Shown here: piece by piece, positions 33,314-37,638 of the stretch
How the letters are laid out: each line of letters begins with the position of its first letter
How positions within the stretch are numbered: position 1 is the stretch's first letter
Source: a virus
Taxonomy: Duplodnaviria; Heunggongvirae; Uroviricota; Caudoviricetes
IMG/VR virus record: IMGVR_UViG_2698536646_000014
DNA length: 40,176 nucleotides
Direction: 5' to 3' (one strand)
Program-made: the position numbers and the translations under genes
Notes under the pieces: generated by a model
Seen by the model: the letters and a program-made list of their open reading frames with translations, nothing else
What the model was told of the DNA's origin: nothing
Databases searched by the model: none

Positions 33314-34142
33314 GACGATGCCCTCCGCTGATATTCAGGAGACGGTGAATATGAAAATTAGCCTTATCCGCCAGACGAATACGTTCAGCTTGCAAGTTAA
33401 GAAGGGTTTCTACCAGAACCTGATGTGCCTGCGGATCCGAAAGAGTTACCTTGCGCAGAGCACGTAGTGCAGTTGTTACATAACTGAGTTTATGTAAGTC
33501 TTCATCATTCAGACGAGTGAGGGCTGGGACAGTAGCCATGATGGCAGCCTCCTTGATCGGTGAAATACTTCCACCACCGGAAACGCCAATTTCGCTGGTG
33601 GTGAACTGAACGGGGTTGGCGTAACCGGTGATCAAGGAAACCGGCGCATCTTTCGATGCCCCCGCCCAGCCCACCATAACTTTGATGTGAGCAAATGCGG
33701 ACGATAAAAAAGACGCTGGCGCGTCATATATCGCCTTGATCAATTCCAGGACGCCAATCCCGGCACCCGCTTTATAAGGTGCCTGAACAGTGTAACGTCC
33801 CGGAATGGCAGAATCAATGTGCTGGTGGTCCTTCACACTCAACAAAATCACGCCTGAATTTCCACAAAGGACTAAAGCACTCATGCGGGTAGTCTTTGCG
33901 AAGATAGATAACGCGCTGTGTTTCTGGCTCCCAACGAATAACATGAACATAAAGTCCTCTTCCGTCACGAAACCAGCGGTTAAGTTCCTGCACAACTCGC
34001 CCCCCACAGTCAGGTAAAGTTCTCTGTGGTTACTTACAGCCAGGTGATTTGGTAATCTGCATTCATGCCGTAACAACAGGTGTTCAGCGACGCTGACCAC
34101 CAGCTGTTGCGACAAACGGTTATTTGCCGTTAAACTGTTCAT
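33306..34142 (-). CDS. hypothetical early-operon protein
   Basis: 278-aa ORF; ATGA overlap with the upstream YdaT-like gene; no family recognised. Confidence 0.45.
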   Translation of the reverse strand: MNSLTANNRLSQQLVVSVAEHLLLRHECRLPNHLAVSNHRELYLTVGGELCRNLTAGFVTEEDFMFMLFVGSQKHSALSIFAKTTRMSALVLCGNSGVILLSVKDHQHIDSAIPGRYTVQAPYKAGAGIGVLELIKAIYDAPASFLSSAFAHIKVMVGWAGASKDAPVSLITGYANPVQFTTSEIGVSGGGSISPIKEAAIMATVPALTRLNDEDLHKLSYVTTALRALRKVTLSDPQAHQVLVETLLNLQAERIRLADKANFHIHRLLNISGGHRHA

Positions 34143-34733: not shown

Positions 34734-34934
34734 TTAATCTTTCGGATAGATATCCGGTCTTAAGTCAGATTTCGTAATTGCACCTGACGTGCATTGCTCA
34801 AGTTTTTTAGCCAGCACAAAACTGGCTTTTTTATAACCATTGAAAACCAGCCGTAAGTAGCCTGGTGTTGAGCCAACTTTTCCGGCCAACTCACCCTGCT
34901 GTTCTTTGGTTAAAGAGTCCCAATACGCTTTCAT
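34734..34934 (-). CDS. Cro-like HTH repressor (YdaS-like)
   Basis: 66-aa product MKAYWDSLTKEQQGELAGKVGSTPGYLRLVFNGYKK...SDLRPDIY; divergent from the CI-like gene; GGAGGT RBS. Track start at 35237 is implausible because it overlaps cI. Confidence 0.65.
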   Translation of the reverse strand: MKAYWDSLTKEQQGELAGKVGSTPGYLRLVFNGYKKASFVLAKKLEQCTSGAITKSDLRPDIYPKD

Positions 34935-35024
34935 ACAATATGTACCTCCGGTATACATATTACATGATTGAGATGAACCTTCAAGATACTTGTACCTTAT
35001 CGGTACAAAGGTTTTAATTTCTTT
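34935..35024. promoter_or_regulatory. immunity-region divergent promoter/operator region (OR-like)
   Basis: Palindromes TTGTACCTTATCGGTACAA (about 34990-35008) and ATGTACCTCCGGTATACAT (about 34940-34958); minus-strand PR-like TTGAAG - 16 bp - TAATAT; cI ATG almost leaderless. Confidence 0.6.
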
Positions 35025-35699
35025 ATGAAAACAGTCCATGACATCCGGCGGTCTAACGCCAGAAAACTGAGAGATGGTGTTGGCGGGAATTCTTCCTTTG
35101 CCACCATGATTGATCGCGAGCCAACCCAGACCAGCAGGTTTATGGGAGATGGTGCAACTAAAAATATCGGTGACAGCATGGCACGGCACATCGAAAAATG
35201 TTTCGACCTGCCTGTCGGATGGCTTGATCAAGAACACCAGACAACGAACATCACAAAAAAACCTGACGTTTCAATCACTAACAAACAAATAACGTTAGTC
35301 CCTGTCATATCATGGGTACAGGCCGGAGCATGGAAAGAAGTTGGCTATTCTGAGGTTGATTTGAGCACAGCAGAAACTTATCCCTGCCCTGTACCCTGTG
35401 GCGAAATGACTTATATCTTGCGGGTGATTGGTGATTCAATGATTGATGAGTACCGCCCGGGAGACATGATTTTTGTTGATCCTGAAGTCCCTGCCTGCCA
35501 CGGTGACGACGTTATTGCATTGATGCACGATACAGGCGAAACCACCTTCAAGCGGTTGATAGAAGATGGAACACAGCGTTATCTCAAAGCATTAAACCCA
35601 AACTGGCCTGAGCCTTACATTAAGATTAACGGTAATTGCTCTATAATTGGTACAGTGATTTTCTCAGGAAAACCAAGAAGATACATAATAAAGGCCTAA
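35025..35699 (+). CDS. CI-type prophage repressor (N-terminal HTH, C-terminal S24 LexA-like peptidase)
   Basis: 224-aa ORF with C-terminal autocleavage domain: GDSM serine motif and downstream lysine (TFKRL), PGD turn. Confidence 0.85.
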   Translation: MKTVHDIRRSNARKLRDGVGGNSSFATMIDREPTQTSRFMGDGATKNIGDSMARHIEKCFDLPVGWLDQEHQTTNITKKPDVSITNKQITLVPVISWVQAGAWKEVGYSEVDLSTAETYPCPVPCGEMTYILRVIGDSMIDEYRPGDMIFVDPEVPACHGDDVIALMHDTGETTFKRLIEDGTQRYLKALNPNWPEPYIKINGNCSIIGTVIFSGKPRRYIIKA

Positions 35700-35710
35700 T
35701 CAATATTTAT

Positions 35711-35735
35711 AACCTGCTTCGGCAGGTTTTTTTAT
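35711..35735 (+). terminator. intrinsic terminator after the cI-like gene
   Basis: acctgc-ttcg-gcaggt followed by TTTTTTT. Confidence 0.75.
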
Positions 35736-35737
35736 AC

Positions 35738-35766
35738 TTGACAATGTACCTTTGGGATACATAATG
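35738..35766 (+). promoter_or_regulatory. pL-like early-left promoter with embedded operator
   Basis: TTGACA - 17 bp - ATAATG; the spacer contains ATGTACCTTTGGGATACAT, same half-site as the OR palindromes. Confidence 0.65.
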
Positions 35767-36201
35767 TATCTAAAAGAAACACAGCACAGGCAAGATTAAA
35801 CAAAATTTGGTTGTAACACGGCGTATGGCACATGCGTCGTTAGCGGTCTGGGGACGTTAAAGGGGACAATCCACTCCTTGCTCGGGCAAACAAACCAGGT
35901 AGCCGGAATGTGCAAGTCAATGATGATGCTGATAAGACGCCTAACCAGCGTGGCGATTCGGTTTGACGCCTGGGAAGAGACCAGGGTGCAACGATGAGGA
36001 CATTTATGGAACCGCGACAAAGTGTGGTGCCGTAACTGGCTAAGTGCTCTCAGCGTTGTGGTGAATGCGCAGGCTGATGCGCGAAAGACATTGCAGCTAA
36101 TGCGGAAAAGAGCTGTTCGGCGGGGCAATTAAACGCCCGTGAGAGTCTGAAATAACCGCAAGCCGGAGATCAGCACCGGTCACCACAACAGCCACTGCTT
36201 T

Positions 36202-36247
36202 GGCGGTACCAGTTTGTACACTTGCTTCCGGCTGGTACCGCTCTTTT
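36202..36247 (+). terminator. strong hairpin plus T-run at the end of the untranslated leader
   Basis: 10-bp arms gcggtaccag / ctggtaccgc around a 19-nt loop, followed by CTCTTTTT. Coordinates approximate (1-2 bp). Confidence 0.55.
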
Positions 36248-36385
36248 TACAAAACAGAGAAGAGCATCACCGGACGACGGGCTCATAACCAAATCCATCC
36301 GGGCGGCTGCCACCGCAGGTGTTCTTCTCTGTTTTGTGGAGAAACCAACCGACCTTGCAGGGTCGATATGATTAGGAGCAGCAAA

Positions 36386-36748
36386 ATGGCTAGCGAACGC
36401 AGTACTGATGTGCAGGCATTTATTGGGGAGCTGGACGGCGGCGTATTTGAAACCAAAATCGGCGCAGTTCTCAGTGAAGTCGCTTCCGGTGTGATGAACA
36501 CGAAAACCAAAGGTAAGGTCTCACTCAACCTGGAAATCGAACCATTTGATGAGAACCGTGTGAAAATCAAACACAAACTCTCATATGTTCGCCCGACTAA
36601 CCGCGGGAAAATTTCCGAAGAAGACACCACCGAAACGCCGATGTATGTCAATCGCGGTGGTCGCCTGACTATTCTGCAGGAAGACCAGGGACAATTACTG
36701 ACTCTTGCCGGTGAACCTGACGGAAAACTCCGCGCAGCAGGTCATTAA
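36386..36748 (+). CDS. hypothetical protein, YfdP-like
   Basis: 120-aa ORF from the ATG preceded by AGGAG; upstream part of the track ORF runs through the terminator hairpin and is not coding. Confidence 0.55.
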   Translation: MASERSTDVQAFIGELDGGVFETKIGAVLSEVASGVMNTKTKGKVSLNLEIEPFDENRVKIKHKLSYVRPTNRGKISEEDTTETPMYVNRGGRLTILQEDQGQLLTLAGEPDGKLRAAGH

Positions 36749-36813: not shown

Positions 36814-37638
36814 ATGTCTCAGAACTTAGACGCAACCGCAATTAATCAAATCCATGCCCTTATTTCTGCTCAGGGTGTTAATGAAATTATCAGTAAGATT
36901 GGTGCCGATGCTGTGGCATTGCCTGAGAATTTCCGCATTCATGATCTGGAAAAATTAAATTTAAATCGTTTCCGTTTCCGTGGTGCGCTTTCCACTGCCA
37001 GCATCGATGACTTTACTCGTTATTCTAAAGATCTTGCAGATGAAGGCACCCGCTGCTTTATCGATGCTGATAATATGCGTGCCGTCAGTGTTCTTAACCT
37101 GGGTACTATTGATGAACCAGGTCACGCAGATAACACCGCCACTCTCAAACTGAAAAAGACAGCTCCGTTCTCTGCTCTGTTGTCTGTTAATGGCGAGCGT
37201 AACTCCCAGAAGTCACTGGCAGAATGGATTGAAGACTGGGCCGACTACCTTGTGGGCTTTGATGCTAATGGTGACGCCATTCAGGCAACCAAAGCGGCTG
37301 CGGCGATCCGTAAAATCACAATTGAAGCGAACCAGACCGCTGATTTTGAAGATAATGACTTCAGCGGCAAACGCTCCCTGATGGAGTCTGTCGAAGCGAA
37401 GACCAAAGACATTATGCCAGTGGCATTTGAATTTAAATGCGTTCCGTTTGAAGGTCTGAAAGAACGTCCGTTTAAATTACGCCTCAGCATTATCACTGGC
37501 GATCGTCCTGTACTGGTTCTGCGCATTATTCAGCTGGAAGCGGTACAGGAAGAAATGGCTAACGAATTTCGTGATCTGCTTGTTGAGAAATTCAAAGACA
37601 GCAAAGTAGAAACCTTTATTGGTACTTTCACCGCCTGA
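36814..37638 (+). CDS. YfdQ-like protein (DUF2303)
   Basis: 274-aa ORF, same length as E. coli CPS-53 YfdQ as recalled; follows the YfdP-like gene. Confidence 0.55.

Follow-up and report, generated by a model that had tools for sequence, protein, structure and literature searches.

A candidate tRNA-like RNA cassette occupies the position of the antiterminator gene N in the early-left leader of a lambdoid phage

Introduction

In phage lambda, the antiterminator gene N is the first gene after the early-left promoter pL. We examined the corresponding position in a stretch of 40,176 nucleotides (nt) of DNA from a Caudoviricetes virus (IMG/VR record IMGVR_UViG_2698536646_000014), here called the window, whose immunity region is of the e14 type. 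A pL-like promoter is followed there by a gap of approximately 615 bp, up to position 36385, that holds no conserved gene and ends at yfdP. The question raised by this locus is what stands in the place of N. A first-pass annotation had described the gap as a non-coding leader of about 600 bp, and this description held: the promoter has 11 of 12 consensus matches, the next gene is yfdP at 36386, and RefSeq is empty in between. That annotation had also suggested that the leader could carry nut- or put-like antitermination RNA structure, a small RNA, or a regulated terminator; the non-coding character at the N position, conserved RNA structure, and a terminator-like hairpin were supported, and the nut and put elements were not. 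Our main result, which it did not foresee, is a modular, putatively stable RNA cassette tied to transfer RNA (tRNA) slots. Sequence comparisons showed that the interval is made up of exchangeable modules of predicted RNA structure, namely, a module called A1, a long covarying helix, and a tRNA-like core, the last of which is a member of a very large, strongly conserved, and apparently undescribed family of predicted phage RNAs.

A conserved tRNA-like core in the leader

The core and its parts lie as follows in the window.

36055-36189, plus strand: tRNA-like core ("module B"), closed by a helix of 36055-36063 with 36181-36189
36067-36082, plus strand: core hairpin 1, GCGC-AGGCTGAT-GCGC
36083-36159, plus strand: variable insert of 77 nt, where the anticodon arm would be
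36162-36180, plus strand: core hairpin 2, G-CCGG-AGATCAGCA-CCGG-T

Members of the core family consist of two nearly invariant halves, GUGGUGAAUGCGCAGGCUGAUGCGC and AAGCCGGAGAUCAGCACCGG(C/U)CACCAC, held apart by a hypervariable insert. The predicted fold, written as RNA, has a closing helix NNU-GUGGUG/CACCAC-ANN, a first hairpin GCGC-AGGCUGAU-GCGC, and a second hairpin (G)CCGG-AGAUCAGCA-CCGG(C) that directly abuts the 3' strand of the closing helix. All of these pairs form in the window copy, and 36055-36189 is the only match of the core covariance model in the window. The exact consensus 25-mer GTGGTGAATGCGCAGGCTGATGCGC is present at 36058-36082 and comprises the 5' half GTGGTGAAT, the 4-bp stem, the AGGCTGAT loop, and the returning stem strand. 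This 25-mer was found in more than 120 IMG/VR viral contigs, which is a lower bound, and in 50 bacterial genome stretches, several of which adjoin tRNA genes; the betaproteobacterial stretches belong to Janthinobacterium, Massilia, Undibacterium, and Xenophilus, and others belong to Aeromonas, Marinobacterium, Moraxellaceae, and Lysobacterales. The 3' block, (A)AGCCGGAGATCAGCACCGG(C/T)CACCAC, was located 12 to 162 nt downstream (median, 74 nt) in 121 of 125 loci, and the 3' half in the window (36160-36186, 77 nt past the 5' half) is the commonest variant in the set. In well over 200 viral contigs and in the 50 bacterial genome stretches, both halves show almost no variation, with the invariance of the closing-helix 5' strand and of the first loop being by construction, as these were fixed by the search patterns. 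Nearly every lineage has an insert sequence of its own, and the 260 core copies contain 131 distinct inserts.

The first-pass annotation had suggested that RNA structure could lie in this interval, to be examined by covariation with homologous prophages; covarying helices with compensatory changes were found in the core and in the helix upstream of it, and some compensatory pairs were found in the long hairpin downstream. Pairs were counted in 92 distinct cores with the insert removed and compared to 500 shuffles. Standard pairs occupied 93.4% of the cells, versus 28 to 53% when the partners were slid, 11 of the 24 core pairs were changed on both sides, and not one of the 500 shuffles reached any of five measures. 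All three core helices show compensatory changes, in four of four pairs of hairpin 1 and four of five pairs of hairpin 2, and the outer three pairs of the closing helix alternate among GTT/AAC, GAT/ATC, GGT/ACC, ATT/AAT, CCT/AGG, and GGG/CCC. Scans barring the consensus base at one stem position at a time gave the hairpin 1 stem as GCGC/GCGC (125 copies) and GCAC/GTGC (80 copies) and also as GCAC/GTGT, GCTC/GAGC, GCCC/GGGC, GTGC/GCAC, GATA/TATC, GGTC/GACC, GCAT/ATGC, and GCTT/AAGT. The two hairpin loops are complementary to each other (GCUGAU/AUCAGC) in a pairing that is 94.6% conserved, and in three exclusion scans for hairpin 1 loop variants, true members with a changed loop were rare.

A search of Rfam 15, whose families include GOLLD, ROOL, YrlA, C4, isrK, STnc100, and AgvB, gave no gathering-score match in the leader (only noise at E<=10) and nothing on the homologous modules of five other loci. 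The core sequences occur in no paper of the searchable library, in which keyword searches also gave no description of them. A diverged core, GUGGUGAAUGCG-GCUCAG-CGCA ... CCGGG-AGGCA-CCCGG-CACCACAAC, is present in SfV, ST64B, and Eeyore and is not detected by the core model; the interior of phiNP is different.

Several other identities of the core and its inserts were considered and rejected. The halves could be read as the imperfect inverted repeats of a miniature transposon, but the stems covary as RNA and there is about one copy per prophage in fixed contexts. Hammerhead, hepatitis delta virus-like, twister, and purine-riboswitch-like folds have junctions that do not fit by eye, and there is no Rfam match to them. 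When the 131 inserts were compared to E. coli rrnH as possible captured host RNA, only one insert type carried a 16S-like stretch, and no 7-mers complementary to the loops were found in rrnH that would indicate pairing with rRNA. The 16S-like stretch, in the inserts of four contigs (L063, L072, L082, and L085), is 29 nt long and 90% identical to E. coli 16S rRNA positions 254 to 282 (GGTGGGGTAACGGCTCACCTAGGCGACGA; E = 2e-5 in a small search). A tRNA-like sequence lies inside the insert of contig L110 and of a Geobacteraceae contig.

Upstream modules and mosaic structure

A 701-bp query covering the leader matched 178 phage records and 2,663 of 5,426 complete E. coli genomes, the latter count being of matches to some part of the query and not necessarily to the whole; 484 of the places were on plasmids. 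The leader is a mosaic in which separate segments match separate phage groups. Positions 35805-36061 are approximately 80% identical to P1-like phages, to O157 typing phage 9, and to two phages related to the latter, TL-2011b and HEMP4. Near 36043-36085, a stretch of 40 bp is approximately 92% identical to many unrelated phages, including Klebsiella Vi1-like and T1-like phages and phages of Erwinia, Edwardsiella, and Cronobacter. Finally, 36201-36386 matches SfV/SfIV-type phages. The folding energy of the whole leader is no better than that of shuffled sequence (z = -0.5), and only 36196-36400 stands out (z = -5.1); the evidence for structure in the leader is therefore comparative rather than thermodynamic. 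The whole RNA leader is absent from E. coli K-12 CPS-53 (L128, 3240-3604), where yfdP and yfdQ are present and iteron-like or ori-like repeats (GATTTTGACGGGTCA and similar) abut the upstream side of yfdP; this may be the reason that the RNA escaped study in K-12.

Two modules precede the core.

35799-35985, plus strand: module A1, a structured RNA segment identified by homology and compensatory changes
35990-36057, plus strand: long helix ("P1-type"), in which 35990-36005 (AACGATGAGGACATTT) pairs with 36042-36057 (AAGTGCTCTCAGCGTT)

A1 contains hairpins at 35818-35840 (ACGGCGTA/TGCGTCGT) and 35969-35985 (CCTGG-GAAGAGA-CCAGG) and is homologous, at about 79 to 82% identity, to the trnI-ban spacer of P1, where it begins immediately past the CCA of tRNA-Ile (trnI), and to the tRNA-Arg leader of O157 typing phage 9. 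An alignment of 31 distinct copies showed conserved hairpins, internal segments of variable length, and compensatory changes such as CCTGG/CCAGG, CCTCG/CGAGG, and GCCGG/CCGGC. Homology to the window begins at about 35799 in relatives that carry another immunity region. The long helix encloses a 36-nt insert in the window and has two mismatches. Among 169 distinct contexts, 54% have an upstream partner forming at least 12 of 13 pairs with the 13 nt that end 3 nt 5' of GTGGTG, compared to 2.3% in a shuffled control. The 54 distinct strand pairs show compensatory changes (for example, GGTAAGAGCATTG/CAGTGCTCTTTCC, GTTGAGAACACTG/CAGTGTTCTCAAC, TGTAACGACGCTT/GAGCGTCGTTACA, and ACAAATCAACCTG/TAGGTTGATTTAT), and the enclosed insert is variable, elsewhere often holding a T-arm-like hairpin, GGTTCGAnTCC.

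Other upstream modules were observed in related leaders. SfV-type phages have a conserved element of about 70 nt directly after pL, CAGCGAACAGGCAGGACGCCCACGAAGUAGCCGCC-hairpin-GAUGAUUCGCUG, at 403-486 in SfV (L329) and at approximately 115-185 in the ST64B, phiNP, and Eeyore leaders, whose hairpin covaries (CCUGG/CCAGG, CCGGU/ACCGG, and CCCGG/CCGGG). The window keeps the first 15 nt or so of this element (35781-35795) and then continues with the P1-like A1. Another module, GCGACUUUGCGGACUUUUUAGAAACUGA...GGCCCGGUGUGAUUAAUAAUGGGCRCACAAC, is common to the T1-like lytic phage swi2 (L005, 1250-1400) and a lambdoid late-operon leader (L024, 4100-4310), from which it follows that the full RNAs would be 500 to 600 nt long with several alternative 5' modules.

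Genomic slots shared with tRNA genes

Predicted members of the core family were shown by these comparisons to share genomic slots with tRNAs in many unrelated phages. In O157 typing phage 9, a genuine tRNA-Arg begins at the exact G of GTGGTG, behind the same A1 and helix modules, and a trailer hairpin and a terminator of the same type come after it. P1 (L003, AF234172) has two core copies, at 1575-1632 and 1808-1909, after tRNA-Asn and tRNA-Thr in the ban operon. One of the P1 copies is compact and has no insert, and the two underlie the annotated minus-strand open reading frames (ORFs) plp and upl, which may be spurious. Downstream of them, P1 positions 2071-2190 give a subthreshold match to STnc100 (33 bits against a gathering score of 47, E = 6e-4); the window leader has no STnc100 match. 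The 40-bp stretch is found 200 to 300 nt upstream of tRNA-Met in swi2 and in Erwinia phage Gungnir39, where the DNA that holds it is unannotated, and core copies in Massilia, Janthinobacterium, and Aeromonas adjoin tRNAs. Overall, 86 of 259 core copies have a same-strand tRNA within 1.5 kb.

The core also occurs in other positions. Many lambdoid contigs carry it between Q/pR'-tR' and the holin gene, a site known to hold tRNAs and stx genes in Shiga toxin (Stx) phages. In five prophage contigs (L046, L054, L084, L093, and L126), the upstream modules are absent and the core starts about 10 nt past a pL-like promoter. Three relatives, Ayreon, an Stx2c phage, and PhiR55_1, match the window at about 99% identity on either side of the slot, and their interior, bounded by GTTGTGGT and CCACCACAAC within the same closing helix, is an unrelated sequence of about 95 nt. 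The slot thus behaves as a cassette site for what are predicted to be stable RNAs. The other interior was seen at approximately 2860-2965 of Ayreon (L001) and in L324 and L325, in the closing helix GUUGUGGU...CCACCACAAC, and cdtI is likewise.

Predicted terminator and downstream hairpins

Three hairpins separate the core from yfdP.

36202-36248, plus strand: intrinsic-terminator-like hairpin, arms GGCGGTACCAG (36202-36212) and CTGGTACCGC (36232-36241), TTTTT at 36244-36248
36243-36343, plus strand: long branched hairpin with a basal helix of about 25 bp (CTTTTTACAAAACAGAGAAGAGCATCACC/GGTGTTCTTCTCTGTTTTGTGGAGAA), in the exceptionally stable segment and in the fold of five phages
36350-36365, plus strand: small hairpin CGACC-TTGCAG-GGTCG, shortly before the ribosome-binding site of yfdP

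The first of these has a GC-rich stem of 10 to 11 bp and a 19-nt loop, followed by C and TTTTT, which is the form of an intrinsic terminator; a simple terminator scan missed it owing to the longer-than-typical loop. The first-pass annotation was correct about the arms and the T-run but had placed them immediately before the first gene, and 137 nt in fact intervene, which hold the other two hairpins. The 5' arm of the helix of about 25 bp starts with the T-run of the terminator. We take 36202-36248 to be the predicted 3' end of a non-coding RNA and a putative attenuator of the yfdP operon, and 36243-36343 is a candidate RNase III site by analogy with the lambda N leader.

The terminator-like hairpin is kept in position in related phages. 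SfV, ST64B, phiNP, and Eeyore share a layout of cI, pL, a leader of 0.7 to 1.0 kb, and a yfdP-like gene, with the terminator at the same place in each and with different stem sequences in ST64B and Eeyore. In the consensus fold of the five phages, the terminator is always followed by a run of five or six U, the helix of about 25 bp is kept with some compensatory pairs, and the small hairpin before the ribosome-binding site is present in all five with differing sequences. More broadly, a hairpin plus T-run was found within 200 nt downstream of the core (median, 81 nt) in 48% of 172 distinct contexts versus 20% of controls.

The pL-like promoter and its operator-like palindrome

The features that surround the leader are as follows.

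Ends near 34734, minus strand: ymfT (cro-like)
35025-35699, plus strand: ymfK (cI-like repressor, LexA family)
35711-35735, plus strand: intrinsic terminator of ymfK (terminator scan and sequence), hairpin 35711-35728 AACCTGC-TTCG-GCAGGTT plus T7
35738-35765, plus strand: pL-like sigma-70 promoter, TTGACA 35738-35743, 16-bp spacer, CATAAT 35760-35765
35745-35761: operator-like 17-bp palindrome TGTACCTTTGGGATACA (TGTACC-N5-GRTACA), overlapping the promoter
36386-36748, plus strand: yfdP, first protein-coding gene of the early-left operon (RefSeq, identical prophage; phrog_204, E = 1e-49)
36814-37638: yfdQ, the gene after yfdP

The promoter sits just past the ymfK terminator, the phage Ayreon record marks a promoter at the equivalent site, and the transcript is predicted to start near 35772. 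Two further copies of the palindrome lie in the cro/cI intergenic region (34941-34957 and 34991-35007), and a search for the operator pattern on both strands gave 5 matches versus 0.18 expected, a number reached in none of 100 shuffles. Because the palindrome overlaps the promoter and recurs twice between cro and cI, the promoter is a repressor-controlled analogue of pL and has the orientation to cI that pL has in lambda. The ATG of yfdP at 36386 is preceded 8 nt upstream by an AGGAG ribosome-binding site (36374-36378); its frame is open upstream as far as a TTG at 36200, and the RefSeq start is nevertheless 36386.

Discussion

On balance, we favor, with modest confidence, the reading that pL drives a cassette for a stable, tRNA-like RNA and that the terminator of this cassette doubles as an attenuator of the yfdP operon. 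Release of the operator (35745-35761) by the repressor would allow a structured RNA of about 475 nt to be transcribed from approximately 35772, and most transcripts would end at the terminator, 36202-36248. The core would probably be excised by tRNA-processing enzymes, with RNase P acting on the 5' side of GUGGUG, and would accumulate as a stable RNA in the manner of the T4 species 1 and 2 RNAs, which come from a tRNA cluster. Read-through transcripts would fold the hairpin of about 25 bp at 36243-36343, a likely RNase III site, and then express yfdP and yfdQ. With both a terminator and read-through, the cassette would also set the level of the early-left operon.

A number of observations weigh against this reading. 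ARAGORN reports no tRNA or transfer-messenger RNA (tmRNA) genes in the window, the Rfam models of tRNA (RF00005) and tmRNA have no match in the leader at E<=10, and the core has no canonical T-loop, anticodon arm, or encoded CCA. Pairing of the closing helix runs 3 bp past the putative RNase P site, which is unusual for a tRNA precursor. The loop-loop pairing shows no compensatory changes, with 2 wobble-compatible and about 6 uncompensated variants. About two thirds of the core copies have no same-strand tRNA within 1.5 kb of the examined sequence, and a terminator follows within 200 nt in only about half of the family contexts. Positions 36170-36371 are covered by PHROG families, which means that genes have been annotated there by others. 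Lastly, we infer the start site, termination, processing, and stability of the leader RNA all from sequence.

As to function, our guess is that this is a trans-acting RNA whose target is a conserved host component able to recognize tRNA shape, because the core is near-invariant from Enterobacterales to Betaproteobacteria. A broader proposal, which we put forward tentatively and at somewhat short of even confidence, is that the core represents a previously undescribed and very widespread class of phage tRNA-like RNAs, in which about 55 near-invariant nt in two halves clamp a hypervariable insert, and that these RNAs target universally conserved host machinery for reading tRNA shape, with the insert under arms-race or cargo selection. 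The class would range from Enterobacterales phages (P1, Stx, T1-like, and Vi1-like) to prophages of Janthinobacterium, Massilia, and Aeromonas, and candidate machines would be RNase P, the ribosome, RNA polymerase, and tRNA-targeting defense. About half of complete E. coli genomes carry at least a part of the leader, and the core, which also occurs in P1, Stx-converting, T1-like, and Vi1-like phages, is unannotated in RefSeq, the curated P1 record, and Rfam 15. An RNA with a 25-nt half unchanged between E. coli and Janthinobacterium must experience strong selection, and it probably contacts a conserved host component. If the proposal is correct, it would provide a testable case for the non-tRNA residents of phage tRNA arrays, a question that dates from the T4 species 1 and 2 RNAs, would explain how early-left transcription is organized in N-less, yfdP-type lambdoid phages, and would correct spurious ORFs such as P1 plp and upl and those behind the PHROG families that cover the hairpin region on both strands.

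Alternative explanations

The main rival is a cis-acting processive antiterminator with the function of the HK022 put sites and an unrelated sequence, in which the nascent core (or A1) binds RNA polymerase and allows it to read through 36202-36248 and later terminators, replacing N. It fits both the position and the extreme conservation, and we regard it as unlikely but deserving of serious consideration. No N gene is present at the N position, a terminator lies between pL and the first gene, and the same layout is kept in SfV, ST64B, phiNP, and Eeyore. In the five prophage contigs noted above the core lies as close to the promoter as putL does (PMC9378689), and like the put sites of HK022, HK639, and phiEt88, the leader is a structured element after pL in an N-less lambdoid phage, before a terminator, and conserved across genera (PMC9378689). 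Near-invariance across Proteobacteria would suit a conserved surface on RNA polymerase, and there is a short local resemblance, ACGGCG...CATGCGTCG..AGCG, between A1 and stem I of putL. This resemblance led to no assignment to put: a covariance model built from seven put RNAs (HK022 putL and putR, HK639, phiEt88, CobraSix, S9-5, and PdC23), which gives 59 to 97 bits for the put sites of HK022 and HK639 that were in the search set, has no match in 35766-36385 at E<=10 with filters off. Comparison by blastn with the HK022 pL-nun and cro-downstream regions gave only chance matches of 7 to 11 nt, and the leader does not conform to the put consensus (GAACGGC...GUCGG...GGCGGGYUCAGGANGARCGGCAAU). HK022 put, which acts in cis on the terminators beyond it by way of the zinc-binding domain of the beta' subunit, has two stem-loops in about 70 nt, unlike the core, which is a three-way junction with an insert. 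Furthermore, phages with an unrelated cassette or tRNA-Arg in place of the core keep a terminator and downstream sequence that are about 99% identical or homologous, and that architecture therefore does not require the core in cis. Copies past Q/pR'-tR' in late operons or in tRNA arrays of lytic phages are numerous, and the upstream and core modules behave as a tRNA transcription unit. Elsewhere, the put model has no match to the SfV-type element of about 70 nt, and its best score in the window is 10 bits (E = 0.9) at 34051-34138 on the minus strand, in the pR operon near the start of the ORF labeled "immunity region," which is probably noise.

A second alternative, which we consider rather improbable, is an Hfq-type trans-acting small RNA (sRNA) formed from the 3' end of the transcript (approximately 36181-36248), that is, CACCACAACAGCCACUGCUUU plus the terminator hairpin and a U-tail. 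By analogy, such an RNA could be a sponge for GcvB, whose target consensus CACAACA occurs at 36183-36189 just before the terminator hairpin; CA-rich linkers such as CACAACCAAAUCAC are common past the core in the family. There is a precedent in the prophage sRNA AgvB, which acts on GcvB through a CACAACA motif (PMC4104026). But CACAAC is the 3' strand of the covarying closing helix, and its conservation is explained by structure for that reason. No Rfam match to AgvB or to another sRNA family was found, and an RNA of the AgvB type was rejected since AgvB sits in late regions and has its own Rfam family, with no match here.

Slightly less probable still is the view that the interval is recombination debris, that is, decayed fragments of a tRNA region with no role beyond the terminator. 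The mosaic leader, with segments that match different phage groups and interiors swapped between close relatives, is what such debris would look like. Against it, the 25-nt half is exact from Enterobacterales to Janthinobacterium and Massilia, the three core helices and the upstream helix carry compensatory changes, and 600 bp of junk would seldom be retained by phages, yet about half of complete E. coli genomes match at least a part of the leader query.

We think it very unlikely that the interval encodes one or more small proteins. The first-pass annotation had reported the lack of a long plus-strand ORF, and this was reproduced: the longest have 39 (TTG start, 35878-35997), 36, and 26 codons, the first being 29 codons when read from the ATG at 35908 (MCKSMMMLIRRL...). 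Such scarcity is as expected for random sequence, and what is unusual is that a 615-bp gap in a phage is strongly conserved at the DNA level. RefSeq/PGAP has zero annotated features in the interval in a prophage that is identical over the 701-bp query. The candidates would be the 29- or 39-codon ORF at 35878-35997, the minus-strand ORFs at 35796-36128 and 36170-36313, and the plus-strand ORF at 36222-36371. ORFs of 39, 36, and 110 codons (35878-35997, 36022-36132, and 35796-36128) have no PHROG family. Hypothetical proteins are annotated in the homologous region of some phage records, and ORFs within 36170-36371 match phrog_3651 (E = 3e-26) and phrog_33599 (E = 2e-16). These two families match ORFs on opposite strands of one conserved hairpin DNA, a pattern typical of ORF calls in palindromic non-coding sequence. 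We ascribe them, probably, to misannotated non-coding sequence because both strands of a single hairpin are matched, because homologues have 2- and 25-nt indels inside the ORFs, and because substitutions keep the base pairs. Across the leader, the differences between homologues include indels whose lengths are not divisible by three and swaps of whole segments; indels of 1, 2, 7, and 25 nt and cassette swaps fall inside the candidate ORFs, and the substitution pattern tracks base pairing. These comparisons showed that 35772-36385 is, as far as can be predicted from sequence, non-coding.

Finally, a lambda-type nut site (boxA plus boxB) served by an N-like protein encoded elsewhere in the phage is most improbable, since, despite the position after pL and boxA-like strings at 36045 (TGCTCT) and 36239 (CGCTCTTTTTAC), regular-expression scans of 35766-36400 found neither a full boxA of the CGCTCTTTA/TGCTCTTTA type nor a boxB-type hairpin with a GNRA-like pentaloop. 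Both strings are helix strands, the first in the upstream helix and the second in the terminator stem, and in many family members covariation has taken the first to a sequence unlike boxA. No N-like gene was noticed.

Comparison with known RNAs

The tRNA-like cassette that we favor has partial counterparts among described RNAs. The T4 species 1 and 2 RNAs (rnaC and rnaD) are cotranscribed and processed with tRNAs, have tRNA-like features, and have no known function. Like them, the core would be a small stable non-coding phage RNA that can lie a few nt from a tRNA in an array; unlike them, it is far more widespread and has a hypervariable insert, and there is no sequence similarity, as the core model has no match in the T4 tRNA region and the T-arm of rnaC is canonical (GGTTCGAATCC) compared to AGAUCAGCA in the core. 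With tRNA and the tRNA domain of tmRNA, the core shares a closing, acceptor-like helix, a 5' hairpin, and a 3' hairpin stacked on the 3' strand of the closing helix. Its complementary hairpin loops are placed where the D and T loops of tRNA touch, the large insert between the two halves recalls tmRNA, and it is interchangeable in position with tRNA-Arg. In addition to the lack of an anticodon arm, a canonical T- or D-loop, and an encoded CCA, it differs in its closing helix, which is 9 to 10 bp long and has G3-C rather than the G3:U70 of tmRNA.

GOLLD and ROOL are large, ornate non-coding RNAs of phages and prophages, often found by tRNA genes, whose function is unknown. The leader RNA resembles them in its modular structure of several hundred nt by tRNA slots, but it has no Rfam match, its hosts are Proteobacteria, and the conserved part is about 60 nt split by a variable insert. 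The lambda N leader carries nutL and an RNase III-sensitive hairpin before the N ribosome-binding site. The present leader is likewise long, structured, and located after pL, with a large hairpin (36243-36343) before the first ribosome-binding site; it differs in having no nut and no N, in having yfdP as its first gene, and in having an intrinsic terminator inside the leader.

Other RNAs in the window

Three Rfam families gave gathering-score matches elsewhere in the window, all on the minus strand.

33594-33681, minus strand: C4 antisense RNA, 82 bits
33706-33782, minus strand: isrK, 64 bits
256-454, minus strand: IS009, 221 bits

The first two form a pair of RNAs, one like that of P1/P7 immI and the other like Gifsy IsrK, inside the pR operon of this e14-immunity lambdoid prophage, and they underlie the ORF that is labeled "immunity region" in Ayreon.

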